A DNA stretch of 64,000 nucleotides from Mytilus edulis (lineage: Eukaryota). The stretch spans positions 15,686,001-15,750,000 of the forward strand of contig NC_092345.1 in NCBI RefSeq assembly GCF_963676685.1. Direction: 5' to 3'. Below, one piece after another: positions 3,001-64,000 of the stretch. Position 1 is the first letter of the stretch. Each line of letters starts with the position of its first letter. The position numbers and the translations under genes are program-made. Under the pieces are notes generated by a model that was given only the letters and a program-made list of their open reading frames with translations, did no database searches and had not been told where the DNA came from.

Positions 3001-4916
3001 GTCAATACTGCTCGTCAGTATCAAAGATTTTTTTAGTTTGAGGTTCACAAGTCTGACAAATGTATAACCGTAATAATTTATAAATGTGATCATAAACCAA
3101 ACCCTTCCTCAAAAAGACAAACGAAAAACAAAAGTTATATGACTTTTTATATTTCAAAATACATAATAACTTGAAGAAAGCAAACAAGAATTGAACTAGA
3201 TATGGTACGTACAGAATATATAAAACCCGAACAATCTGACAACTGCAAAAGCTACTATATGATCGAGCTTAATTCGTCATCTTAACAGCTAGTGTATAAA
3301 AAAAAACACAGTGGCGGATCCAGGCATGATGAGGCGTTGATCGGCATTCGTGTTTCTCACGATTTTTTTTAGTCTCAACTAGATTTTTTGTATTTATTCC
3401 ATTATTGGGAATTACACATCCCTTTCAAAAGTCCTGGCTTCGCCAAGCGAAAATATTATGAAATAATCAAAATGATTAATTAAAGAGATTTTGGTTTTTA
3501 TAGTGATTAAGATTATAACACAATGTTGACTTCTGTATCCATCTTTTTGACATTTTTACCTATTATGTCTGTTTGTTTTGTTCAAACATCGTTTTACATG
3601 TGATAGAATTTGATGCGACTGGCATACAAGTGAGAGGTTTAGCTAGCAATAAGACCAGGTTTAATATACACTTTTTCTACAAAAGAAAATGGCTTTACCA
3701 ATACAGGAATATGACAGTTGTTATCTATTCGTTTGAGCTGTTGATTGTGCCATTTGATTAAGGACTTTCCGTTTTGAATTTTCCTAGGAGTTCAGTACTT
3801 TTGTGATTGTACTTTTTGATACTTTCCCGATTTTAAAGGCTAGATTCCCTCTTCAAAAAGGCAGTGAAAGGACTGAAAAATGTGCTCGAACATTGATTAT
3901 TTACGATCATAATGTAAGCACCTAATGCATTCAGTTTCGTTTTCAAATGTTTTATCAAATTGTATTTTATTGACTTTTTATATGCAATGAGTGTCCAATA
4001 AAAATGCGGAATTACAGTGCTCAATGTCTACATTGACTCTGATGGTAGAGTAAAGACCTTCATATTTTAATCAAATACACAAATAGTTAATATAAAACAC
4101 ACATTTTGATATCTACTACTAAAATTAAGACGGTTTACTTATGAGCATTTATGACAACCCGGTAGTAATCGTAAACCATCACATTCTAAATAATATGCCT
4201 TTTTTATCTATTTAACGAGAGCACCAGCTTAAAGTCAATACAAGAAATCTTTATTTCGTGGTCCAACTCAGTTAGTTTGGTCTGTTACAATTTAATGACA
4301 ATATTGTTATAAACACACATAAGTTTAAAGGCAGCAGTAGTTTTGCGACGTTCAAAACTCATTTACCATAAGATATTAAGATTAAGAAACAAAAACCGAA
4401 AGAATTATACGACCGAGTGCATCTACAGGGTCAGTGTCTTCTGCAATAATTGATTACTTGCTGCTGCATCCACACTCAGTCAAAATGTCACAATCGAGAA
4501 TGAAACACAAGCGGTACATTTATAGATCCGACGACTATTCTGGTGGGTTTTTTCTTTCGATTTAAGGCACTCGGATCCGCAGTTAGGTGCGGGTTTAACA
4601 AAATATTACTTTTAATCAAAACTTTTATCTACCGAACTGCATACCTTTATGTAATACTTTGAGTTTTTATTTTAATTTGAACTGAATAATGAATTGGGGT
4701 ATATATAGTATGACTAAAATTCCTAGTGAAGGTAAATACAAAAAAAACCCAGTGTTATACAAGTGAGAGAAGTAGCTAGCTAGCTATACATCCAGGTTTA
4801 ATCCACCACTTTCTATATCAAGAAATGCCTATACCAAGTCAGAAATATGAAAGTTATTTTCCATTCTTTTGATGTATTTCAGTTTTTTTTTATTTTGCTA
4901 TTTGATTATATGTAAA

Positions 4917-5402: not shown

Positions 5403-8400
5403 TTTGGCTATTGTTTTTAATTCCTTGTTGTTACATAGCTCTTCTAAAGGGTTGATTTTTATACATCCTTGGTTTCCAAATACCTGACTTTAAGTGTTCT
5501 TATGTAGGTAAATCAAGAAAAACCCTTTAAACGCATGGAATTTATAGAGAGTTTATTTTTCTTAATACAGTAGATTTCATGAGTATTCATATGTAAAAAG
5601 TAAAATTACAAAAATACTGAACTCCGAGGAAAATTTAAAACGGAAAGTCCCTAACAAAGGAATGTTTGATATGAACATGCAACTAGCGATAAGTTGTATT
5701 TTTCTTTGTTTTAAGTTCTCTTAACTTAAAACAAAGAAAACACAATTTATGACAAAGTGGAATACCAGATAATTAAATGGTTTGTGTTGAATCAATTGCA
5801 GGATTTTCCGATTTACTACAATTACCCAGAATAGGTTGTGTAATAAAATGTTGCTGTTATTACGTTGACATTGCCTTTAAACTCGTGGCTCATCTGGTTA
5901 CATAAACATTTATAACATTACTACACTTAATCTTGAAACATTTAGGGATATTAAAAAGAACAATTAAAAATGTTTCTGTATGACAAAAACAGTTAGTCCT
6001 GTCGTACATAACAATATTGTTTTCTAAAAAAGGAATAAAAAAATTTGCTGAACATTTATTGTATTTCTACAAATAAAGATTTAAATTGCGGCAAAATAGA
6101 ATTGAATTTAAACCCAAATAATTGATACTAAGATTTCTCTTTGAAACTTAATATTTTCATTAGGTAAGTAAAAACTTCAATGTTTATTCGTAACAAATAC
6201 GGTGGCACAAAAATAAGTCGACATTGAAGCAAGGAACACAAAACTTTTTACAGCCAATTGATTTTGTTTCTGTATCAACAAACTGCAATAAAGCATTGTA
6301 CAATGAATATTTTAAATTTTCTTTTATGAAATTTACAATTATATATAAACAGTTTTTATCAGTTCAGATTTGAAAATAAGTATTTCCGTAAACTGTTTAT
6401 TTTAAAGCAAACATTCTGTATTTAAAATTACAATTGCTAAGCATAGCATATTAATGTCATAGTTTCTTAAATGTAACGTTAGCGTTCATATGTTTCCTTT
6501 AAACATTGAATAGTATTTGCTGTTTTGCTCTTAGATCTAAACTTCGGACTTTGTTTGGTTGTTTAACTTTTTTTTATTTGAGCGTCAGTAATGAGTCTTT
6601 TATAAATGAACCGATCGTCTAGCGTACAGAATTCTAATCCTGGTATTTATCATTAGTTTATTGATACCTTTTAATTTTCCCTCTTCGATTTATTTTTCTG
6701 TACTTTTGATACTGAAGATTGGAGATTTTCAAAATTTTTAGGAACAAAATTTGCAAAAACAAAAATGTAAATTTTACTCTTTAGAGCAAAAATATTTATT
6801 ACCATTGTAAGAGTGATATCGGCAGTATTATATTCAATATCGCAAATTACCGAAACGTGATTTTCTTTTGATAAACCTTCTTGTCCTCTGTGTAGATTTT
6901 TAGGAGCAAATACATTTTGAGAAAATCCGACAAAAATATCTAAAGGAGAAAAAAAAGGTATTTTTTTTTAATGTTGCTACATGTTTTTGATTATCAGTGA
7001 AACCTGTGGTCGTGAAAATTACAACAATGAATATTTCATAACATGACACGTTCTTTAATCGAGTAATTATAATTATTCTTGAAGAATTTAAACGTCATTT
7101 TTTTTATTTAGTGATCGGTTTAGAAATTCCAAAGATTCAGCAGGATGTCAAAATAAAAAGAAAACAAAAGCTTTTAAATGTTTTATTGTATATTAATCTA
7201 TATACCCTTGTCATAACTAATTACAAACGTCTGTCCGATTTGGATAGACAAATCAGAATTAGTTTTGCGTTTAAAGCTGTCGTTTCCTTTGTAACCGTTC
7301 TCGTGGCAGTGTAAGTCCGTGATGTATCGTACCAGCTTTCGCCCCATTAAGGTTTCGCCTGTCAAACTCTATTTACTGAGTAGAAACAAAATCCACCCAG
7401 TGTAATCTTATACACTATAACTTGTTTACTGGTAAATTATCAACATTGTTAGGTTATAGATGGCTGGGTACAGTTAACTGTTTGTATACAATCGATCCTA
7501 ACGTATGTTAAAATGTCACATCATCACTAAACGAGAGGTGCCGAACTCCGTTGGTACTTTGTGTAAAAAATTTAAACGGGTCATTTATTTACAAAGTAGT
7601 TACATAGTTTAATCATCCGTGTTTGGTTTCAGTTATTTTTGTCCGTTGAAAGACGTACGTACTGCGAGGTATAAAACTCTCGTCATATTCATGAATGACT
7701 GCAATCATTAAGAAACCATTAAAAATGTCCCTAATATGAACTCGTTACGTTGTTGCAAATTTGAATGAACACGAATTTTCCAAATTTATATACGAAGTGA
7801 CATAACAACAAAAAAGTAAATAAATTGCCTTACATAGAAAGCAATATCTGATTTGATAATAAAAAATCATAAAATTAAATACTAAACAAATTCGAGGTGG
7901 GAAACTTTTTCCTCGAAAGCAACAAAAGAAGCAACTAACTGATTTCTAGAAAAAAACTGAAACAATTTGGAAGCGATAGAAATGCAAGTTCAACTAACTT
8001 ACACCAAAATTTCAATATATAAAAGGCACTTAAAGACTAGAAAATGCATTTAAACCTTAACAATATTTATCATAGAAACATGCACAAGGGAAAAAATAAC
8101 ATGGTACATTAGAGTTTGTCTATACAAGGATATAAACTATTAAAGACTAAAAAAAATAAAAACAAATAAAAACAAAATTAACAAAAAACAAAAAATACAC
8201 ACACAAAACGGAGAGATATTGGATGCTCTCGACGAAAAAGCATACACTCTCTTATATGCACGGAGGATTATGAAAAAGTAAACCGAGTTTTTTTTTTACT
8301 CATTCCATTAAAATGATTACACTAAGCGATTAGTATCTTATAACATCAGCTAAGTTAGAAATAATTGTGGCTACATCTAGTAATCCACATTGTCGAAATG

Positions 8401-8798
8401 CAGAAAAACTTAGTGGTACCGTTCATGTTCTACCTCTAGCTCTGCTGGTAGACATTTAGTTTTCAAGAGTAACACCTTCCTAATATCCAGTACTTCGATA
8501 CTTGCATGAACATACGGATATTATTTGATTAAAATTTGCTGAAATAAAATTATGGAAATCATTTTTAAATAAGGAACATATCTCCATCCTGCAAAGTCCT
8601 GGTTACTTGTTCGGATTGGACTATAGTAAAAGTAATTTTGGATGGTTTGGTCAGCTTTTTTTTAATAGGTATAGAATTTTCAATTATTTGATCTCGAACA
8701 TGACTGAAGAGATACTAATTGCCGAATGTGCATCTTGTGCAGTGAAATTGGTACCGCTTATATATATATGTGGCCTTCCAAATACTTTTCTATCCCTA

Positions 8799-8842
8799 AC
8801 ATCACTGAAGAGACATTAATTGTCGAAATCCGGATATGGTGT
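8799..8842 (+). ncRNA. Type I hammerhead ribozyme of a second family (CUGAAGA core), apparently intact
   Basis: ACATCA-CTGAAGA-GACA(ttaat)TGTC-GAAA-TCCGGA-TA^TGGTGT: stem I ACAUCA/UGGUGU, palindromic stem III AUCCGGAU, AUA triplet. Confidence 0.75.
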
Positions 8843-9030
8843 AAAAAATTTAGCACCTCATGTTGTGGTTTACCATCTTTGCGTCTGGCGTATAAAATTA
8901 TAATCCTGGTACTTTTGATAACTTTTGCCTCAAGTTTATTGTTTTCTACTCGTTATCAAATTAATATAGAGATTCATTTTGTTACACTTTGTGATCAATT
9001 TATTTGGCAATCGTCAATGGCAGGGTTTAA

Positions 9031-10509: not shown

Positions 10510-11046
10510 AAGTCCTTTTTCATGTGTTTCTTTGTCTAATACGTTCTCCTATTTATTTGTATTGTAGTCCTGTAATATTATGTTGTCATTTCAATGTTAT
10601 ATTCAACATTGTCATTAAAGTGCGAGGTTTGGCATGCCACAAAACCAGGTTCAACCCACCATTTTTTCCTTTAAAAATGTCCTGTAACAAGTCAGGAATA
10701 TGGCCATTGTTATATTATTGTTCGTTTCTGTGTGTGTTACATTTTAACGTTGCGTCGTTTGTTTTCTCTTATTTTTTAATGTAATTTCACATCGCGATAT
10801 GACGTGTCACGGTACTTGTCTATCCCAAATTCATGTATTTGGTTTTGATGTTATATTTGTTATTCTCGTGGTATTTTGTCTGATGCTTGGTCCGTTTCCG
10901 TGTGTGTTACATTTTAGTGTTGTGTCGTTGTTCTCCTCTTATATTTAATGCGTTTCCCTCGGTTTTAGTCTTTTACCCCGATTTTGTTTTTTGTCCATGG
11001 ATTTATGAGTTTTGAACAGCGGTATACTACTGTTGCCTTTATTTAT
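10510..11046 (+). repeat. Abundant interspersed repeat; copies at 14600-15137(+), 24066-24420(-), 24727-24825(-), 25140-25397(-), fragments at 3500-3820, 4750-4900, 23580-23700
   Basis: Shared ggtttggcatgccacaaaaccaggttcaacccacc and cagcggtatactactgttgcctttattt blocks; joined to hammerhead-bearing pieces at 14.4 kb and 24.5 kb. Confidence 0.8.
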
Positions 11047-11562
11047 TTATAAATTAAAAATACTTTTTTAATACCGTTGAAAATATTTTAAAGGGAAAGT
11101 CATATAAACTCCGCCAATTTTTATCGAAAAGAAAAAAAAAGGTTGAACCATGATTAAATTTACATTACTTCATGCGATCCTTCTAAACTTCTTATATATA
11201 AGTGTAACATGCTGTAAACTTAGATTCAACCTCTATAAATGTTGTTCCTTATTTATTTAAATGTTTAAACATCTAATATACTTGATCATCTACAGCATAA
11301 ATAGCTAGACTGTTCGAATTAGTCAATTTTGGACCAATCCGAAGGATTTCACAGCTATCTGCCTTGTGGTCCATGCCATGATGGTTCACACCTTGTTGTT
11401 TGATGTCGGAATATTTAAGATCTTGAACATGAACATACCGTTTTAATTTGGTTCATATATATAATCATTTTAATTGGGAACTATTTTATACCAATGAAAT
11501 CTTCTTGTAAAGTGATTGTCGTCAGTTGTCGTCTTGCCATAAATAATTTTCGTTAGAATTTA

Positions 11563-12493
11563 TTAGCTGAATCAGATGGTTACTTTCCCTATTGAATTGT
11601 TTAGCTGAATCAGATGGTTACTTTCCTATTGAATTGTTTAGCTGAATCAGATGGTTACTTTTCCTATTGAATTGTTTAGCTTAATCAGATGGTTACTTTT
11701 CCTATTGAATTGTTTAGCTGAATCAGATGGTTACTTTTCCTATTGAATTGTTTAGCTGAATCAGATGGTTACTTTTCCTATTGACTTGTTAAGCTGAATC
11801 AGATGGTTACTTTTCCTATTGAATTGATTAGCTGAATCATATGGTTACTTTTCCTATTGATTTGTTAAGCTGAATCAGATGGTTACTTTTCCTATTGAAT
11901 TGTTTAGCTGAATCAGATGGTTACTTTCCCTATTGAATTGTTTAGCTGAATCAGATGGTTACTTTCTCTATTGAATTGTTTAGCTGAATCAGATGGTTAC
12001 TTTTCCTATTGAATTGTTAAGCTGAATCAGATGGTTACTTTTCCTATTGAATTGATTAGCTGAATCAGATGGTTTCTTTTCCTATTGGATTGTTTAGCTG
12101 AATCAGATGGTTACTTTTCCTATTGAATTGTTTAGCTGAATCAGATGGTTACTTTTCTTATTGAATTGTATAGCTGAATCGGATGGTTACTTTTTCTATT
12201 GAATTGTTTAGCTGAATCATATGGTTACTTTTCCTATTGAATTGATTAGCTGAATCAGATGGTTACTTTTCCTATTGAATTGATTAGCTGAATCAGATGG
12301 TTACTTTTCCTATTGAATTGATTAGCTGAATCAGATGGTTACTTTTCCTATTGAATTGTTTAGCTGAATCAGATGGTTACTTTTCCTATTGAATTGATTA
12401 GCTGAATCAGATGGTTACTTTTCCTATTGAATTGATTAGCTGAATCATATGGTTACTTTTCCTATTGAATTGATTAGCTGAATCAGATGGTTA
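11563..12493. repeat. 38-bp minisatellite, about 24 copies
   Basis: Unit ttagctgaatcagatggttacttttcctattgaattgt. Confidence 0.97.
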
Positions 12494-15400
12494 ATATTTG
12501 TTTTCACATAGTCACCCATGAGCATGTCAAAAATGAGATTTTTTCTTTTGACACATTGGATTATTGGTGCTATAGATATTTAGCGAACCTAGTTGTCGTA
12601 CTGTACTACAGCTAAGTGTCATTAGAGGCGGATATAGGGGACAGGGGCCCAGGTGCACCTTATGGGGTTTATATATGATAAAGCCTATACTTTTTCGAGT
12701 ATCACTCCAAATGTTGGAATGACTGCAGTCACATCCCATTTTCCCCATCCCGTATCCGCTCTTAATTGTTCAGCACAAATTTATGCTGTTTGAAATGTTT
12801 TAACAGTTAATGTATAGTGACAGGTTTTTACACTTGACTGAATTTATAGCTCAGTATTCGGCCTTGTGTTGAAATTGTTTCTGCATTTCTAAGCAATAAC
12901 AACTGGGATATTAAGTTTAAAACTACCGTATATAAATTTTAAGCATACACCCTTTAAACCCTGGGAAAAGGTATACAGAGCGACAGACAAAACTATTTCC
13001 TTGATCTTATCAAGGTGTTTTCGTAGTCATCACTTTTAAATATACATATCTAAACAACTCTGAAGATGAAATCCTTCTTTGATAAAATATTTTTGATATA
13101 AAAGGTTTAAAACTTCTATCACTATCTTGAGCAAACACATTTTCTCAATTCGTGAACCATTAAACGTATGCAACTGCGATAAAAACCGACATTCGGAAAA
13201 TTTACAACCTTCCCAAACTTGATTTGGGAATTATACACTCAAACAAAGCCAAGAGACGTCAACATTTTGAAAGATATAACAACTGACACATGTACATCGT
13301 GTGAAATAGTGTAGGCTTAGGACAAGTATGCGCTGAGAAAGAGACAAATAAAACCATATTGTTGTAACTTCAAACTAGTATTATTTATAATTAATAAATA
13401 TCGAAAGCAAACTAAAGGACAGCTCGATTCCTTTGATACTAACTGTAGGAGGTATAGTACAATTACTAATTGATGGGTTCGTCTTTGACTGGGATTCACT
13501 TGTTATCTTCTGGGTAAATGGTGAGATCAAACATAAAAGAACTGGATACAAAGTCTCCATGTTTTATAGTTAAATGGGTTAAAACTTAAGATGGTAGGTT
13601 TCTTTGTCGTATTTAAAAGTTTTTTTTTATGTCAACTAATAGTGACTTGGTACATTTTCGCTTAAACAAGAACTTTAAAAAAAACTAATTCTGCGCAGTT
13701 TTTGAATTAGCTAGTATTAGAAATCAATTATACGAAATATTAATTTTATTTGACCATAAAGCTTTTATGTTCCTTTTGCTTGACGTGACTCGGTATTTTT
13801 GCATCATATTATCGATTTTTTGTTTGCTTTTGACGTTACTGGTACAGATTTGCCAAGAACCAAAGCTTGTCTTTTCTATTGTATTTGTGTGTTACGGTGG
13901 AGAAAATTAATCCCCGCATTCATTTATTAGATTTGATTTTGTTCAACGTAATCAGTACGATATTTTGCGTTTGAAGTTGGATTCAAGGCAAACCGGACAT
14001 AGCTTTATAATATAGTTAATTGCTACCTTAGTTTGCTATTAATAAGTATTGAAATGTGCATTGTTATTAAATGCAATATCAGTATTTAATTCAAATATAA
14101 TCTTAAATCAATCCTAATTCTATCTTATTCATTCTTATGTGACGTCATTTTTCATTTTTTGATGATCTGTTTTACAAATTCAACGTCATTTGTTTTTTCG
14201 TTTTTTACAATTTCAAATATGACGTAACTTGGCGTTGAGGTTTAAACTTATTCGGATGTGTCTACATTTTGTGTTGCAAATGTCTGGTTATATAATGTAT
14301 TTCAGTTGTTTTCTGTAATTAGTTAATACTTCAGTTTGAACATATACATCTTTTGTATAGTAATTTTATGAATTTACTGTTTGCAAAAGTATAAATTATT
14401 CTAAATAATAGGGATGTTCTGGTACTAACAGAAAATCCTGGCCGTCTTTGGCACAACTTTTTTTTATCTTTTGGTCCTCGATGCTGTTCGACTTAGTGCT
14501 TGTTTCGGCTTTCAAACTTTTGTATCTGGGCGTCACTAGTAGATCTTGTGTGGACAAAATGCACTTCTGGCGTATTAAAATTTTGAACTTGTTGCCTTTT
14601 GTTGGCTGTTGTTCGTGTGTTTCTTTGTCAATTGTGTTCTCCAATTTATTTTTATTGTAGTCCTGTGGTGTTGAGTTGTCATTTTAATGTTATATTTCAC
14701 ATGGCTATGAAAGAGGGTGGTTTGGCATGCCACAAAACCAGGTTCAACCCACCATTTTTTCCTTTAAAAATGTCCTGTACCAAGTCAGGAATATGGCCAT
14801 TGTCATTTTATAGTTCGTTTCTGTGTCTGTTACATTTTAACGTTGCGTCGTTTGTTTTCTCTTATTTTTGAGTGTAAATTCACATTGCGATAAGACGTGT
14901 CACGCTACTTGTCTATCCCAAATTCATGTATTTGGTTTTGAGGTTATATTTGTTTTTCTCGTGGGATTTTGTCTGATGCTTGGTCCGTTTCTGTGTGTGT
15001 TACATTATAGTGTTGTGTCGTTGTTCTCCTCTTATATTTAATGCGTTTCCCTCAGTTTAAGTATGTTACCCCGATTTTGTTTATTGTCCATGGATTTATG
15101 AGTTTGAACAGCGGTATACTACTGTTACATTTATTTACCCACATGATTATGACGATAAACAGACAGTGCTTATTGTCAAAAATTAAAGTATATCAATGTG
15201 CGATTAATGGTAGAAGATGTTTAATCTTGCACCACCTGATGAAAAAGATGTGTGCTAAAAAGCGATAATAATGGGTTTTTTTCTAATTCAAATTGCAAAG
15301 TATATTTAAAATAACAGCAGTAAAGTAATGAATTTATTGTATCCCATGTAATTCTGCACATTTGGTTTATATACATAACACTATAGCTCTAAGGAGAGGC

Positions 15401-20678: not shown

Positions 20679-20985
20679 CCCGAGGGTATCACCAGCCAAG
20701 TAGTCAACAGTTCGGTGTTGACATGAATATCAATTAAATTGTAGTTTCCCTGTTTACAAAACTTTGAATTTTTCGAAAAACTAAGGATTTTCTTATCCCA
20801 GGAGTAGATTACCTTAGCCGTATTGGCACAACTTTTTGGAATTTTTTATTCTCAATGTTCTTCAACTTTGTACTTGTTTGGCTTTTTAAATAATTTTATA
20901 TGAGCGTCACTGATGAGTCTTATGTAGACGAAACGCGCGTCTGGCGTATTAAATTATAATCCTGGTACCTTTGATAACTATATTC
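20679..20985 (+). mobile_element. Penelope-type terminal repeat (pLTR) / retrozyme-like monomer containing the hammerhead
   Basis: About 300-bp interspersed repeat; related pieces at about 6540-6670, 8430-8925, 14370-14590, 17640-17850 and 24440-24620(-); directly precedes the PLE RT. Confidence 0.7.
20904..20947 (+). ncRNA. Type I hammerhead ribozyme, apparently intact
   Basis: GCGTCA-CTGATGA-GTCT(tatgt)AGAC-GAAA-CGCGCG-TC^TGGCGT: full core, stem I GCGUCA/UGGCGU, stem II GUCU/AGAC, palindromic mini stem III ACGCGCGU, GUC cleavage triplet. Confidence 0.88.
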
Positions 20986-20996
20986 TATATTCACTG

Positions 20997-21552
20997 GATC
21001 TTCCATCACTGTATTGGATACTTAAACTGCATAAGTGTCCTTACAAACAACGGTATATTGCTGGGTCGTCCAAGTGCTCCACGAAACCTCTATCTAAATT
21101 ATTAACATCTATTTTATCAGCAATCAAAGACGGGCTTCAAAGTTATTATGAAACGGCCTATTCTAGAGGTGGCGTGAATCAGATGGGGATACTTAAAAAT
21201 TCCAAAGATCTTTTAGAGTACATACAATCTAACTCTCTTTCATCTTGTAATAGTATTAAAACATTTGACTTTTCTACACTTTATACAAGTATTTCACATT
21301 CCAAACTAAAAGAAAAATTGAAAGAGTTGGTATTGCTTTGTTTCATCAATAAGTATGGCCAACGAAGATACAAGTATCTTGTCTTAGGAAGGGATAAATC
21401 CTACTTTGTAAAGGATCACTCTGATTCAAACAAAAAAATCTCTGAAACTGACATTATCAAGATGCTTGATTTTTAGATTGACAACATATTTGTTACGTTC
21501 GGAGGACGTGTTTTTAACAGAATATCGGCATTCCAATGGGAACGAATTGTTC
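20997..21552 (+). mobile_element. Penelope-like element (Naiad/Neptune-like) reverse transcriptase fragment, disrupted
   Basis: LPSLYWILKLHK...RYIAGSSKCSTKPLSK...KTFDFSTLYT...IDNIFV...GIPMGTNC; stop at 21474-21476 and a frameshift near 21515; truncated by an insertion at about 21553. Confidence 0.85.
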
Positions 21553-22120
21553 CTTACGTAAACTAGTTTTGGCCCAAGAAAATAAAATGTTTGATAATTA
21601 TTTCAAATTTGCACATAATGTTTAGAAATGCATTGGGTCAAGAAATATAAATAAAAAACATAAAGATTTGTATCTGATGACGTCACAATTACGTCATAAT
21701 ATGTACTGTTTTCACAAAAACGATGAAAAAAAACAGAATTTATGCAATTTTCTTTCTTTATATCTGTTGTGGAAACATCCTGCGCACCCAAGAAACAACA
21801 AAATAATTTAACAGGAGCTTTATTATAACTATTGGCTTGATTTCACCAAATATAAAGTTGTTTTTTGGGTGCGCACATACTTTTTCAATACTTAAAATTT
21901 GATAAAAAAACAAAGAAAATCACGAAATTTAACACAATATGCAAATTAATTCATGATTTGTTGCCATGGTAACTTGCTCGATGTCAAATTTTTGTTTTGT
22001 TTTTCTTAGTACCTTACACCTTAGTCAAGTTTTCAGTTATTTAAGAACATGTATGATAACTTTTAAATTTGCAGTAGTTTTGGGCCAAATAAGGGCCTTA
22101 TTGCCCCCTTCTCCTTTGAC
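21553..22120. mobile_element. Non-autonomous DNA-transposon-like repeat interrupting the PLE RT
   Basis: RT homology ends abruptly; related terminal motifs (tagttttggccc / tagttttgggcc) near both ends. Confidence 0.45.
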
Positions 22121-23705: not shown

Positions 23706-24465
23706 TTGGCCATTTCTGTATTTTTGTTATTTTGTTTTTCACAGTACCCAACCACAATGGTTTTTTTTTATCCATGTTAGAGAACAGTAACAGTGTCAGT
23801 TACGATTCATCTTGTAATGATCTGTAATTGTAAAAAAGTCAAAAGGTCTAATTTCTTCCGTATAAATTGATATGTGTATGTTTTTTTCCCATTCTCTTAG
23901 ATAGTATAAATACGCTATGAAAATGGTTTCTAATGTAATAAAAAAAATATGAGTTAACAAAACAGAAAACTGTGCTTTTTTTGGTTTGTTTGTTGATAAA
24001 GTGAAACTTTTAATTTTACGTAATCCGAAGTATTTTCTAACTTAGGTATATGTTACCTTAGATGTAAATAAAGGCAACAGTAGTAAACCGCTGTTCGAAA
24101 TTCATGGATCGATTGAGAAAAGCCTAATCCGGGTTACACACTAAAACTGGGGGAAACACATCAAATATAAGAAACCTACGACACAACGGAAACACAACAT
24201 TAAAATGCAACACACATAGAAACGAACTATAATATAACAATGGCCATTTTCCTGACTTGGTATAGGACATTTTAAGAAAAAAAATGGTGGGTTGAACCTG
24301 GTTTTGTGGCTAGCCAAACCTCCTGCTTTTATGGCAATGTTTAGTATAACATTAAAATGACAACATTACATGACAGGACTATAAAACAAATAAATAGGAA
24401 AACATATAGGATAGAAAAAACACACGAAATATAGCTAACAAAGGGTACCAGGTTTAAAATTTAAT

Positions 24466-24511
24466 ACGCCAGACGCGCGTTTCGTCCACACGAGACTAAC
24501 CAGTGGCGCTC
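24466..24511 (-). ncRNA. Hammerhead ribozyme variant with altered core (CUGGUUA)
   Basis: Reverse complement gagcgcca ctggtta gtctcgtgtggac gaaa cgcgcgtc tggcgt; stems kept, core mutated. Confidence 0.6.
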
Positions 24512-25682
24512 AGATCAAAAAAGTTCGAAAGGCGAAACAAGAAGAGAGTTGAAGAGCATTGAGGGCCAAAAGTTCCAAAAAGTTGTCCCTAATACGGCTA
24601 AGGTTTTCTGCTTGGGATAATAATGAGAGTATCTGACAAATGAACCGTCATGTTTTCAATATAAACAAAATATGGTATACTTAATTATTAATAAGACAGC
24701 AACCCAACAACAAAAATTACTATAAAAATAAAGGCAACAGTAGTATACCGTTGTTCGAAACTCATAAATCGATTGAGCAAAAAACAAATCCGGGTTACAA
24801 ACTAAAACTGAGGGAACGCAATAAATGTGTCTTACGTTAAGATTTTCGGACTTTAACACTAAGCTTCTAAACACAATTTTCAACACTTTCTTCGATCTAA
24901 ACATGTTACAAGATTAAACGTGTTAAAATATGAGAGCAAAAAATGTACAAACTCTAGTTCAGGATTTAAACACCATTTATACAGTTAACGTGTAGAAATT
25001 TTATCGGAAATGATATTTTTTTTACGTGGTCATACAGAAATTTGATATATATCATGTCGATGCCTCCAATTTGATCGAAAATTCGGGTCGGTCTATACTA
25101 CATAACTTTTACACCCATTTCTGAGATAAACATGATCATAAATAAAGGCAACAGTAGTATACCGCTGTTCAAAACTCACAAATCCATGGACAAAATACAA
25201 AATCGGGGCAACAAACCAAAACCGAGGGAAACGCATTAAATATAAGAGGAGAACAACGACATAACACTAAAATGTAACACACATAGACAAAATCCTACGA
25301 GAATAACAAATATAACATATATATATATAACATCTAAACCAAATACATGAATTTGGGATAGACAAGTACCGTGACACGTCTTATCGCAATGTGAATTTAA
25401 CAAACACAATCTTCAGTTAAAAATGTTGCGAAATTAAACATGTTAAAAAGGTCGCAAACAATGTACAATGTATTTAGAATTGTGTTTAGGGTTTAAACAC
25501 CATTTATACAGTGATCACGTAGGAAGTTTATCGTAAATGCAATTTTTAAAGTGTGCATATAGACACTTATTCTGAGATGTTATGTCGATACTAACAGTTT
25601 GAACGAAAATTTCGGTCTATACATTATGACTTGATTTTATTCTTCAAAAAAACAGAAAAACTGAATTATATCCGCCATGTAA

Positions 25683-26250: not shown

Positions 26251-26850
26251 TTAACTTTAATCAAATAAAATTATGTTTGAAGAACAATAAAGGTTTTCGA
26301 ATGATGTCTCAAAAATACACAGTAAGTAGTGGTGTAAAACTGCTACCTCATATAACATGAAATGTATAGTTACAACAAAAACATACCGCAGCTACGATAG
26401 AATAAATAGCATTTAATTGTGTGTTTACAAAAAAAAAAAAAAACCCGCAGCAGTAAAATTTTAACAAAGACATACACTTTTTCTTATATTTTGATATTGA
26501 TTATATTTCAAGACTAAATTTTTGTTTATATCTAAATGATAGATAAACAGTCAATATGTTCATATAGAAATGTTATCTTGTTGCTGGTTCAATTGGTCAA
26601 TTTGACTTTTCCCATAAAAACGGCCGTGAAAGATTGATAATAATTGATTTAACGCTTTTTTTTTATTAATCATCGGGTAATACACAAAACTCTTCTGTTT
26701 GTTGTGTAAATTAAGTTCGGACTGAACGTCTTTGTACTAATACTAAATTGTTGCAAAAAACGTTTTTTTCTATACGACTCCACATAAGAAACGGTTTAAC
26801 CGATTCGCACTTTCCATAGACCAAGAATTTGTATAGTAAATCCTTGCATA

Positions 26851-27585
26851 CACAGCTGCTTTAGGAAAAGTAATCTTCATGTACAGTTGTAAAGATGCAT
26901 ATCAAATGTGCATTTGTATAGCTGTATATAAACTGTACATCTGTAAAGCTGTAGATCAACTGTACAGCTGTAAAGCTATATATAAACTGTACATCTGTGA
27001 AGCTGTATATAAACTGTACATCTGTAAAGCTGTAGATCAACTGTACCGTGAGCTGTAAAGCTATTTATCATATACTTAGACTAAATAACATATGATTTTT
27101 ACAGTATGATAATAGCATTAAGTTAAAGTATTTTCCATATTTTTTGAATTGGTGCTTAGCGGGCTGATATGAAAAGTTTATCACATGCTTCGATTGTTAT
27201 CACATGCCTTTCCGTAACGTTATCACATGGCATTCCGGTGATACTCGGCAAATTCCGGAAAATACACCTAAATGCTACGTTTTCATTGAAAAATATTACA
27301 AAGTTGTGTACAAAACAATTATTTGAATATTCTAAAGTATATTGTGTAAAATGATTAAATTAAATTAAAAAAAAAAATTAAATAAATGCAGTTTTTAAGT
27401 TTTTCTGAAACATAATTTAGAAAGTTATAGAAAGTATACAGCTAAACAGATATACACTGTTTATACAGATGTACAGTTTATATACAGCTTTACAGCTGTA
27501 CAGTTTATATACAGCTTCACAGATGTACATTTGATATGCATGTTTAGAACTGTACATCAAGATTACTTGTACTAAAGCAGCTGTG
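26851..27585. mobile_element. MITE with TA TSD and subterminal repeats of about 28 bp
   Basis: TIR cacagctgctttag / ctaaagcagctgtg; mirrored (aaactgtacatctgtaaagctgtatat) arrays at both ends. Confidence 0.75.
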
Positions 27586-28257
27586 TAGACTGTGCTTGTG
27601 GAGTAGAAAATTATTTCAATATCACGAACTCATTGAGGGTTATTGTGTGTGTGTATTTCTTTATTTCTTTTGTCATTTGAAAGCGAAGATTTTCCTCATT
27701 CAAGCGATAGCAATTGTCTAACTGTTCCAGACACAACAATTAATTAAAATTAATTTTTCATTTTCATTTTCAAACGTCAACTTTGTTAAGAGTAATTGAA
27801 CACATTTATACCTAATTTAAAACAAAAAACAAAAGCGAGTGTCTGTATTATTGACTACAAACATGAGATCAAAAGAAACACTAATGTAACCGTCAGTCTT
27901 CCATCACCTAATATATATTTTTTACTGTTTTGATCCCAGAGATTTACAAGCGGTTTCATCTGCAAGAGAAATATTATTATCTCCTACACCAGATTTTAAA
28001 AAATGTCATAAACGATAATCAGTGTTAAAATGACTTGTCAAGCTTATGGATGTTCTGCCTGACCAAGAAATGTAAAAGTCTCCCCTGTAAAAAAGAAAAA
28101 TTGTACCACACTTAGATCTGCAACATTAACTTACAAGAAGCAATCTTTGATAGTGCCTAGGACAAGTGTGTGTGTTGGCATCTTGTTCCGAAGGAAACTT
28201 GATGGTACGGTTATAACTTATAGACCTGAGGTTGCGAGTGGTCTGTCCTCATATATA

Positions 28258-41000: not shown

Positions 41001-44000
41001 ATTCAAATCAAATTAAAATGTTTTTGTCCTGATATGAATGTAATATTTGCTACTAGACTTTAAACACCAATCAATCATCATCATCATCAATATCTCAAGT
41101 GTTATACCTACCTTTTCAACCGAATTTTAGGTACTTGGGATTCATTAATGATCGTTGAATACCAATTTCATGGATTTCAAGGGTACAGGGGAGTCATGAA
41201 TAAAAATGTTCAACGAAGTACAAATTTTCTAAAGGAGTGTATGCAGACTTTGCCAAAACCACAAAATTAAAAATTCACGAAAAATGAAAATTCTGCTCAA
41301 ACTAAAAAAAATGCTACCCACGAAAATAAATGAATCTACAGTATATAAAAAGAATATTTTGATTGGCTTATGTAGTCCTTTGAGTAGTAGAATAATAAAA
41401 AGTCCTCGTAATAAATGAGATCTTACCTTGAAAAGTTTATCATATACCATGTCCACAATACCAAAGAATACAAAATAGGGTTTGTATACACTGTACTCTA
41501 GTACCTTTTTGTTGGATAAACTGTGGAAAAATACAAATTAAATCATTTACAATTTGATAGTGTAGGATAATATCATATACAATTTGATAGTGTAGGATAA
41601 TATCATTTACAATTTGATAGTGTAGGATAATATCATTTACAATTTGATAGTGTAGGATAATATCATTTACAATTTGATAGTGTAGGATAATATCATTTAC
41701 AATTTGATAGTGTAGGATAATATCATTTACAATTTTTGATAGTGTAGGATAATATCATTTACAATTTGATAGTGTAGGATAATATCATTTACAATTTGAT
41801 AGTGTAGGATAATATCATTTACAATTTGATAGTGTAGGATTATATCATTTACAATTTGATAGTGTAGGATAATATCATTTACAATATCATTTACAATTTG
41901 ATAGTGTAGGATAATATCATTTACAATTTGATAGTGTAGGATAATATCATTTACAATTTGATAGTGTAGGATAATATCATTTACAATTTGATAGTGTAGG
42001 ATAATATCATTTACAATTTGATAGTGAAGGATAATATCATTTACAATTTGATAGTGTAGGATAATATCATTTACAATTAATAGTGTAGGATAATATCATT
42101 TACAATTTGATAGTGTAGGATAATATCATTTACAATTTGATAGTGTAGGATAAAATCATTTACAATTTGATAGTGTAGGATAATATCATTTACAATTTGA
42201 TAGTGTAGGATAATATCATTTACAATTAATAGTGTAGGATAATATCATTTACAATTTGATAGTGTAGGATAATATCATTTACAATTTGATAGTGTAGGAT
42301 AATATCATTTACAATTTGATAGTGAAGGATAATATCATTTACAATTTGATAGTGTAGGATAATATCATTTACAATTTGATAGTGTAGGATAATATCATTT
42401 ACAATAATAGTGTAGGATAATATCATTTACAATTTGATAGTGTAGGATAATATCATTTACAATTTGATAGTGAAGGATAATATCATTTACAATTTGATAG
42501 TGAAGGATAATATCATTTACAATTTGATAGTGTAGGATAATATCATTTACAATTTGATAGTGTAGGATAATATCATTTACAATTTGATAGTGAAGGATAA
42601 TATCATTTACAATTTGATAGTGTAGGATAATATCATTTACAATTTGATAGTGTAGGATAATATCATTTACAATTAATAGTGTAGGATAATATCATTTACA
42701 ATTTGATAGTGAAGGATAATATCATTTACAATTTGATAGTGAAGGATAATATCATTTACAATTTGAAAGTGTAGGATAATATCATTTACAATTTGATAGT
42801 GTAGGATAAAGTGTTTGTGCAATAAAAAAATAATCACAACATATTTGAAATGAAGTACATGTATTGTTATTTCATAGTATTCCATAACTTTTCATCAAAT
42901 TTAACACTGTTATAAATTCATGAGATATACCATTTTACTTCCTTTTCTTATGCAACAAATACATAAATTAATCAGTTTAAAAATTAACAATAAATTCACA
43001 ACAAGCTTAGGTTGATAAATTATTTTTTTTAGGTTCATTTCAACAATTTCACATGATCAAAATATTTTATACAAACATGTCAGAAACTGATTCTATTCAA
43101 TTTTGTCTACCTAATGCCAAAAAATATTTAAAATTCTGTGACCTAACCAGTTTAAACATACTTTATTGTTCAAAATGACAAATGGATCAGCCTAACTGCT
43201 CCTAATGCTGAGCAGTAAGCAGGCATCAAAGGTTACAACAGCTACTGGAATATTACACATTCAAGCATCACAGATGAGTCTTTTGTAAACAAAGTGCACA
43301 TCTTGTGTACAAAATATGAGCTTAGACTTAATAACTACTTTAATACTAACCTTGGCTGTCCAGTGGCAGATTGATATCTAGCTTGGGCCAGTACTAGTAA
43401 TCTCTTGAGTAATTCTACTTTAGTATCTTTCCACATACTATAAGGATGTATATGTAGTGTCATCACTGTCCAGTATAATGCTCCCTCAGTCTGTAAGTGT
43501 ACAACATTACATCAACAATACTGCGGTTTTATTATTATTTGTTGGATACACATTTTACGTGGATTTCACAAATTCTTTTCTTTGATTCAGAATTTGTTAA
43601 AAGATCAAATTAATGAAAAAGATATTTTCAAGATTTCTTTTCATGAAATAGTGTTGGATATGAAAACGAAATTAAATTCATATCTTTAAACAACTCAAAC
43701 TGATTCACATGGTTCATGGAATATTTTTTAACAAAAGTGTGTTACAATTATTTAGTTCCTTCTTTTTTCTCATTATCAGTACAAGATAAACTTGCTTTTT
43801 GATCATCTTAATGAAAGAAAGATACAACAAACATGAATAGTTAAATGACAAGATTTTTATCCAAAGAAAGATAACTCTATTTACCTCATAGCTATTTTCC
43901 AACCATTTTTCTTTTGGCAGAGTAATAAAATTGTTGAAGTTCTTCTCTTCTCTTCCCACAGATCTTGTTCTATAAAACAAAGTAAAATCATGATTCAAAT

Positions 44001-62569: not shown

Positions 62570-64000
62570 AACAAGTGAAACTGCGAGCTACTGCTCACTG
62601 ATGATACCCCCGCCGCAAGTGGATAATATTAATAGTGTAAAAATATGCAAGTGTTCGGTAAACAGGAAGTTGTCGAGTGATGAATCTGAAAACGCATCAC
62701 ACGGTATAGCTGACTTATATAAATCCTGAAACCAAATTTCAGAAATCCTTGTATTGTAGTTCCTGAGAAAAATGTGACGAAAATTTTTAACTTGGTTATC
62801 ATGTGTAAAATCATACAAGTGTTCGGTAAACAGGAAGTAGTCGAGTGATGAATCTGAAAACGCATCACACGGTATAGCTGACTTATATAAATCCTGAAAC
62901 CAAATTTCAGAAATCCTTGTATTGTAGTTCCTGAGAAAAATGTGACGAAAATTTTCAACATGGCTATCATGTGTAAAATCATACAAGTGTTCGGTAAACA
63001 GGAAGTTGTCGAGTGATGAATCTGAAAACGCATCACACGGTATAGCTGACTTATATAAATCCTGAAACCAAATTTCAGAAATCCTTGTATTGTAGTTCCT
63101 GAGAAAAATGTGACGAAAATTTTCAACTTGGCTATCATGTGTAAAATCATACAAGTGTTCGGTAAACAGGAAGTAGTCGAGTGATGAATCTGAAAACGCA
63201 TCACACGGTATAGCTGACTTATATAAATCCTGAAACCAAATTTCAGAAATCCTTGTATTGTAGTTCCTGAGAAAAATGTGACGAAAATTTTCAACTTGGC
63301 TATCATGTGTAAAATCATACAAGTGTTCGGTAAACAGGAAGTAGTCGAGTGATGAATCTGAAAACGCATCACACGGTATAGCTGACTTATATAAATCCTG
63401 AAAACAAATTTCAGAAATCCTTGTATTGTAGTTCCTGAGAAAAATGTGACGAAAATTTTCAACTTGGCTATCATGTGTAAAATCAGACAAGTGTTCGGTA
63501 AACAGGAAGTTGTCAAGTGATGAATCTGAAAACGCTTCACACGGTATGGCTGACATATATAAATGTTGATACCAAATTACAGAAAGGGTGGATGTGTAGT
63601 TCCTGAGAAAAATGTGACGAAAGTTTCATGGGACGGACTGACGGACAGACAGAGGTAAAACAGTATACCCCCCCTTTTTTAAAGCGGGTATAATCATACA
63701 AGTGTTCGGTAAACAGGAAGTTGTCGAGTGATGAATCTGAAAACGCATCACACGGTATAGCTGACTTATATAAATCCTGAAACCAAATTTCAGAAATCCT
63801 TGTATTGTAGTTCCTGAGAAAAATGTGACGAATATTTTCAACTTGGCTATCATGTGTAAAATCAGACAAGTGTTCGGTAAACAGGAAGTTGTCAAGTGAT
63901 GAATCTGAAAACACTTCACACGGTATGGCTGACATATATAAATGTTGATACCAAATTACAGAAAGGGTGGATGTGTAGTTCCTGAGAAAAATGTGACGAA
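62570..64000. mobile_element. Helentron-associated (HINE/DINE-1-like) element with a 168-bp central tandem array; array restarts after the first 3' end
   Basis: Units start at 62648, 62816, 62984, 63152, 63320, 63488; (GACG/GACA)n at about 63630-63652; terminal palindrome tataccc...gggtata at about 63664-63691; array resumes to the window end. Confidence 0.8.

Follow-up and report, generated by a model that had tools for sequence, protein, structure and literature searches.

How is a repeat that carries a hammerhead ribozyme related to the fragment of a Penelope-like element (PLE) reverse transcriptase (RT) that follows it on the same strand in a 64,000-nt stretch of the Mytilus edulis genome (hereafter "the window"; GCF_963676685.1, NC_092345.1)? 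An earlier note, made from the letters of the window, had taken their junction as a physical link between a self-cleaving repeat family and its autonomous partner. The retrozymes of mussels, the Naiads and the idea of PLEs moving retrozymes are already published, and the candidate RTs for animal ribozyme circles have so far been argued from co-occurrence and shared hammerheads. Sequence comparison and structure prediction indicate that in the window a truncated retrozyme monomer abuts a truncated Naiad fragment and that the retrozyme family is probably a non-autonomous passenger of hammerhead-less Naiads, by which it would be recognized through a leader of ~60 nt.

The repeat of about 300 bp that had been seen around the hammerhead is confirmed: 20679-20981 (plus strand) aligns with 88% identity to the 355-bp unit of a family, here called R, which forms arrays at loci L034 and L081-L110, and represents a 5'-truncated single unit (R positions 43-355). 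Its 3' limit is exactly the fixed 3' end of the family (unit position 355) and its 5' limit lies inside the leader; by comparison with the leaders of L034 and L033, 20679-20701 (plus strand) is the 3' half of the stem-loop that Naiads also carry, and the copy lacks the 5' strand of either leader stem. The type I hammerhead at 20904-20947 (plus strand) is intact, as the earlier note maintained. It is matched by the Rfam model Hammerhead_1 (RF00163) with 33.0 bits and E 2.4e-4, just under the gathering score of 34, and is the sole ribozyme among the nine Rfam matches in the window at E<=1; the CUGAUGA/GAAA core is unbroken and the GUC triplet ends at C20941, after which the cut is predicted, so that the features of a type I hammerhead (CUGANGA/GAAA/NUH core, three stems, open stem I) are all present. 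Stem III is an 8-nt palindrome, ACGCGCGU, which leaves no room for a loop and which in cofolding pairs between two molecules; the window hammerhead is thus predicted to act as a dimer. The minimum-energy fold of the isolated 44-mer is not the hammerhead, and its stability does not exceed that of shuffled sequences (z +0.85).

An AT-rich spacer of 11 nt (20982-20992, plus strand), which none of the six element sequences compared with it matches in full, precedes the RT piece, which begins at 20993 on the same strand, 52 nt past the predicted cut, in agreement with the ~50 nt given earlier. This piece (20993-21553, plus strand) is an internal fragment of an element designated Naiad-A and comprises the N-terminal half of the RT (93% DNA identity; 151/160 aa to the Naiad-A protein, P0001); it corresponds to nt 1926-2487 of 3370, starts at aa 616, is truncated at both ends and is interrupted by a stop codon at 21474-21476. 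A Pfam search with the fragment returned a CPL match alone, judged spurious, and inspection by eye showed no target-site duplication around the retrozyme copy. The locus is a dead retrozyme monomer adjoining a dead Naiad fragment: with one hammerhead and half a leader, the copy would be neither a source of circles nor mobile, and the junction is by itself ordinary. As to the at least six copies or fragments of the repeat formerly counted in the window, seven stretches do match, but that at 14320-14579 lies within the 3' UTR of another Naiad family (Naiad-B), that at 24431-24623 is ambiguous, and the copy at 20904 alone keeps an intact core, stem III and cleavage triplet.

Family R consists of arrays of 353-363-bp units with one hammerhead per unit and has the form of non-LTR retrozymes (tandem non-coding units of 150-450 bp that each hold one type I hammerhead), the window copy being monomeric. 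A second family, Rz2, has a unit of 350 bp that is 70% identical to R and carries a different hammerhead; the first-look candidates in the genome number 5596 for R (355 bp) and 1248 for Rz2 (350 bp). A decayed Rz2 copy with two hammerhead-like cores occupies 8440-8857 of the window. In Mytilus galloprovincialis, tandem repeats of ~350-390 bp with type I hammerheads, falling into two ribozyme families with ~5000 copies, have been described (PMC7229834), and mussel repeats of such size self-cleave, one of them at ~0.1/min, and accumulate as circles of ~350-400 nt (PMC7229834). By size, by the existence of two families and by copy number R is likely to be the published mussel family; R and Rz2 resemble the retrozymes that Cervera and de la Pena (2020) describe from mussels in type I hammerhead, unit size and number of families. 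In the available text of that study (PMC7229834) the partner is only a proposal (LINEs or PLEs), and there is no description of a shared leader or of a 3' end that is fixed.

In two stranded-looking RNA runs the depth over R is 2- to 8-fold greater for minus-strand first mates, whereas over the last part of a Naiad 3' UTR the depth is near even between strands. In most stranded libraries minus-strand first mates represent RNA of the ribozyme strand. Reads across the joint between the end of one unit and the start of the next are distributed in the same sense (60 vs 3 and 105 vs 7; 3 vs 4 in a third, unstranded-looking run). The RNA of family R thus comes for the most part from the ribozyme strand and runs over the joints between units, these reads deriving from the family and not from the window copy and fitting circles or tandem transcripts alike. 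In the fragmented RNA-seq, RNA ends do not pile up where the hammerhead would cut. Many RNA reads that map to window positions 20902-20949 share the hammerhead but have flanks that differ from those of R and agree among themselves, which suggests that another retrozyme subfamily is expressed as well.

A search of the 1.37-Gb genome with the RT piece gave 16,475 first-look candidates, of which 150 were scored; the copies of Naiad-A among them are 93-94% identical to the piece, and many have frames of 1000 codons and a tandem period of 3370 bp. Naiad-A is a young 3370-bp Naiad PLE with an N-terminal GIY-YIG domain. Its protein, P0001, is encoded in a single ORF of 995 aa with the GIY-YIG N-terminal (Pfam, 130-167, E 0.035) and the RT C-terminal (RVT_1, 640-849, E 1e-4), both matches being below the Pfam cut-offs but with motifs visible in the sequence, in which a Zn-finger-like motif ahead of the endonuclease, a KR-rich block and the CxC, GxKY and DKA motifs can also be read. 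The Naiad clade (Craig et al. 2021, PMC8557442) is, as far as its published description was available, like Naiad-A in the N-terminal GIY-YIG, CxC and DKA, in partial tandems and in the lack of a canonical hammerhead; bodies of 3.4-4.4 kb, 5' truncation and partial tandems forming pLTRs are given for it (PMC8557442), and Naiad-A has a 3370-bp body, 5' truncation, such tandems and no canonical hammerhead, none having been found in its unit by Rfam or regular expression. A Neptune or canonical EN+ PLE was ruled out, there being neither a C-terminal GIY-YIG nor a pLTR hammerhead; consequently, of the former label "Naiad/Neptune-like", the first half stands and the second falls, since the element has its GIY-YIG at the N-terminus and is hammerhead-free. 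The assignment to the Naiads relies on domain order, motifs and identity to Naiad-C as read from the sequence.

Naiad-B (4553-4751 bp) and Naiad-C are two further families found by protein search; the proteins of Naiad-A and Naiad-C are 55.6% identical over aa 1-990, and Naiad-C starts with the same sequence as the published Naiad_Mgal. Naiad-A and Naiad-B differ from the two Mytilus consensi listed in the part of PMC8557442 at hand. Searches with distant Naiad proteins mostly gave back families already found; a PDB sequence search with the full Naiad-A ORF gave nothing under E 0.7, and no relative of the protein was found in viral contigs. The 5'-truncated copies of the Naiad-B 3' UTR account for the window repeats at 10516-11041, 13869-15133, 24069-24623, 24729-24826 and 25143-25399, and the Naiad-C 3' end matches 3494-3817, 4753-4909 and 5595-5654. 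The Naiad-B 3' UTR (L142-L151; window 14320-14579) contains one or two decayed retrozyme-like pieces of ~70% identity, without leader and with a broken hammerhead core, which were either captured and inactivated or are the remnant of a hammerhead-bearing ancestor. The 3' ends of the published Naiad-2_Nbra and Naiad-3_Nbra show both hammerhead core halves, bearing the authors' marks HHR_core and HHR_half_core in the part of PMC8557442 available.

Could the repeat be the hammerhead-bearing pLTR of the PLE whose RT follows it, as the earlier note supposed? The two are on the same strand and 11 nt apart, the repeat stops at its natural 3' end, canonical PLEs bear hammerheads in their pLTRs (PMC8557442, as available), the retrozymes of Xenopus are described as resembling pLTRs in the portion of the preprint at hand (bioRxiv 10.64898/2026.07.22.740005) and a decayed, similar piece is contained in the Naiad-B 3' UTR. 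However, 20 loci were fetched for whole Naiad-A elements and, of the 17 that hold the full unit, none has the retrozyme repeat or a hammerhead; the 3' end of elements with this RT in full length is a different one, free of hammerheads, and in 15 of the 17 it is this own 3' end that stands directly ahead of the element. Nor does the junction recur: none of 164 other truncated Naiad-A copies with a visible 5' junction (24/29, 59/60 and 81/83; two of them share one flank) is joined to the R 3' end. Furthermore, the Naiad-B piece is internal and its core broken, and a Naiad ORF start follows a retrozyme-type leader in 0 of the 30 loci examined out of 38 pattern matches. That the repeat is a terminal repeat is refuted for Naiad-A and, as a general reading, hardly credible. 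The retrozyme-Naiad-A junction is rare and not the normal terminus of either element; since full-length 3' ends differ and the junction is unseen elsewhere, it does not reveal a terminal repeat, but the mobilization of the retrozyme by a Naiad-type PLE, which it had been thought to document, is supported otherwise, namely by a shared covarying leader and the same fixed register of 3' ends. Concerning the junction alone, a single event in which the RT jumped from Naiad RNA to retrozyme RNA at the initiation site of the latter, instead of two insertions, is a possibility that we regard as somewhat the less probable. The geometry agrees with it, and two look-alikes occur among the 164 junctions: at L307 an Rz2 ending 5 nt short of its 3' end is joined to Naiad-A, and at L365 a young Naiad-B 3' end (99.6% identity) is directly joined to a young 5'-truncated Naiad-A, a possible cross-family template switch. 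On the other hand, the flanks of Naiad-A hold 10 retrozyme 3' ends in 172 kb, a density from which, estimated by hand for joins within 15 nt and on one strand, ~0.07 chance joins are expected in the 164 junctions and ~7 genome-wide from the 16,475 candidate places, so that one case is weak and chance and template switching are indistinguishable; moreover, Naiad-A also inserts into T-runs within retrozymes (L034, L010, L095, L270), and the 11-nt spacer intervenes. Whether it arose by chance, from adjacent insertions, or by template switch, the window junction is an occasional product and not a piece of element anatomy.

Evidence that connects the two kinds of element is found elsewhere than at this junction. 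The first ~70 nt of Naiad-A match the retrozyme, the common leader being ~60 nt long; in the leader alignment R shares 88% of its letters with Naiad-A and 71% with Naiad-B, and the leaders of R and Naiad-A are predicted to fold alike (z -4.4 and -3.8), the minus strands folding about equally well. In order, the predicted layout has a stem of 7 bp, then a bulge, a second stem of 6 bp, the invariant bulged core (CUGCUGGUGGA ... UCCCCGAG) and lastly a loop that varies. In an alignment of nine families (five Naiads and four retrozymes, one row per family by choice), from which decayed copies, L177 and Naiad-C, with its inserted hairpin, were left out, 99% of 198 cells are paired and both sides have changed in 7 of 22 pairs, while slid controls reach 33-50% pairing. 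Neither the percent paired nor the covariation score is attained in any of 500 shuffles, counts that are not probabilities because the nine rows are related; a measure of further pair types does not rise above the shuffles (256/500). The ten invariable core pairs contribute no covariation, and in the six of nine rows recruited by the core pattern (L168 included) the invariance of the core is built in; Naiad-B and Naiad-C, found by protein search and hence independently of the DNA pattern, carry the leader nevertheless. Of 121 proteins, 3 have the translation of the core in frame before the normal start. R and Naiad-B could also form a pseudoknot of the core with the 3' bulge, but L160 and L172 do not preserve it, and it was dropped.

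Among the 54 published Naiad consensi (PMC8557442 supplement), 15 have the core at their 5' start and one has a variant of it: those of three corals, eight bivalves (nine with the variant), three hemichordate families and one toadfish, i.e., four phyla. In the other 38 it was not seen by a text search, which line breaks can defeat, together with a view of the first ~140 nt. In metagenome contigs, retrozymes with different hammerheads hold the leader 81-94 nt after the hammerhead core (six loci); of 28 matches to the leader pattern, 19 score 41.7-90.9 bits, the remaining nine being GC-rich, stemless chance matches (18.8-23.2 bits) that were excluded from the counts. Viral contigs gave ten pattern matches, those listed by the model scoring below 16 bits. 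It appears plausible, on balance, that a subclade of Naiads (corals, bivalves, hemichordates, a fish) opens with a stem-loop that a telomerase-like RT would bind to set its start, and that several families of molluscan retrozymes carry a copy of it.

The insertions also have fixed 3' ends. Where the end of an R insertion is visible, in 24 distinct loci (30 fetched, of which five are array duplicates and one runs off), it lies in 23 at unit position 354-355 plus 0-4 matching letters, immediately before the leader, the single exception being interrupted by a Naiad; the 5' ends are scattered. Rz2 insertions end directly before the leader in 20 of 21 (25 fetched) despite a different terminal sequence, and the 3' ends of Naiad-A and Naiad-B hold the same position relative to their own leaders. 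Because the hammerhead cut falls short of the retrozyme ends, by 40 nt in R and by 32 nt in Rz2, it does not define them. By counts of the downstream bases all four families end in T-runs followed by AT-rich DNA, a feature too unspecific to serve as evidence. Eight of 46 retrozyme 5' ends fall at positions 308-318, which comprise stem III and the cut, against ~1.4 expected (L081-L110, L310-L334; interval picked after viewing the data), a cluster that may reflect run-off or stalling of the RT at the ribozyme.

What could be the role of the leader? Most likely, as far as comparison of the families allows, it would be the recognition and initiation element of the Naiad RT, through which hammerhead-less Naiads would copy retrozyme circles or multimers. 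The Naiad protein would bind the leader, nick T-rich DNA and begin reverse transcription just 5' of the leader; on a circle or an uncleaved multimer the RT would copy the whole unit and run on, yielding a ragged partial unit together with whole units. Since the hammerhead cut precedes this start by 40 nt, cDNA made from a cleaved linear monomer would be just 40 nt long, and it would take a circle or an uncleaved multimer to serve as template for whole units and arrays. By leader identity Naiad-A is the best local candidate for the partner, and Naiad-B or Naiad-C could also serve. There is a precedent for an internal start: a Poseidon PLE, PAc of Anolis (Frangieh et al. 2024, PMC11167929), is described in the text available as starting reverse transcription inside the RNA, where pLTR and ORF join, as requiring RNA 3' of the start, as targeting AT-rich DNA and as having no need of hammerhead cleavage. 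PAc belongs to another clade, its required RNA lies in the ORF and no conserved motif is defined in that text, so that the two are likened by mode of working alone.

Two other readings of the leader have to be weighed. It might be a shared internal promoter or an inherited remnant, in a retrozyme derived from a Naiad 5' end but copied by the RT of a canonical PLE or LINE or spread at the DNA level. PLE promoters are placed at the pLTR boundary in the available part of PMC8557442, an invariant core would suit a transcription factor and the transcription of the repeat is strand-biased; but the compensatory changes and the hairpin insertions tolerated in Naiad-C point to a single-stranded structure, a promoter leaves the fixed 3' and ragged 5' ends of two families unexplained, and the one canonical PLE family seen in this genome, the sole one compared as an alternative partner, is without a leader match, all of which makes this explanation unlikely. 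A still smaller chance is given to a leader that cleaves itself just 5' of its own start or marks a cut by the GIY-YIG endonuclease, the cut then setting the 3' ends. An invariant bulged core with covarying stems and variable loops does resemble small ribozymes, Naiads without hammerheads still form tandems, and at L040:1-1147, ahead of a full-length element, the Naiad-A leader is repeated in tandem at least 13 times, in exact copies of 83 bp that run up to the start codon. Yet the leader is unmatched by the Rfam covariance models at E<=5 or E<=10, RNA reads cross the predicted cut (60 and 105 sense-type reads) and its layout, compared by eye, does not fit the layouts of HDV-like, twister and twister-sister ribozymes, which counts against catalysis. 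The published mussel circles, moreover, are ~350-400 nt long (PMC7229834, text available).

A leader conserved across Naiads and retrozymes has apparently not been described. In the open-access literature searched, subscription journals and Repbase being outside its scope, neither a conserved Naiad leader nor a Naiad-retrozyme link was found, and the available text of PMC8557442 mentions neither a conserved 5' structure nor a Naiad-dependent retrozyme. The closest counterpart is offered by the retrozymes of Xenopus (Li, Clavereau, Pollet 2026, bioRxiv 10.64898/2026.07.22.740005), which in the accessible part of the preprint are also non-autonomous PLE derivatives linked to their partner by terminal sequence; in this vertebrate the link is the hammerhead-bearing pLTR, whereas in the mussel it is the 5' leader, held in common with a partner that lacks a hammerhead.

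A covarying leader shared in the register of the 3' ends points to a partner and to an element acting in cis, and narrows the question of mobilization down to a single protein with a 60-nt RNA. Should the recognition of the leader by Naiads hold true, it would provide a defined RNA element for PLE priming, which in vitro is known so far from a single element, and would account for the benefit that the repeat draws from circularization: hammerhead circles would be reverse-transcribed round the circle by a PLE devoid of hammerheads, the two forming a sequence-defined parasite-host pair, and the leader would represent a portable tag of ~60 nt for target-primed RNA insertion. Apart from these elements, tandem arrays are present in the window at 11470-12643, 41509-42927, 62635-63985 and 26849-27587; their units measure 38, 30, 168 and 27 bp, and the array of 27-bp units has an inverted partner.
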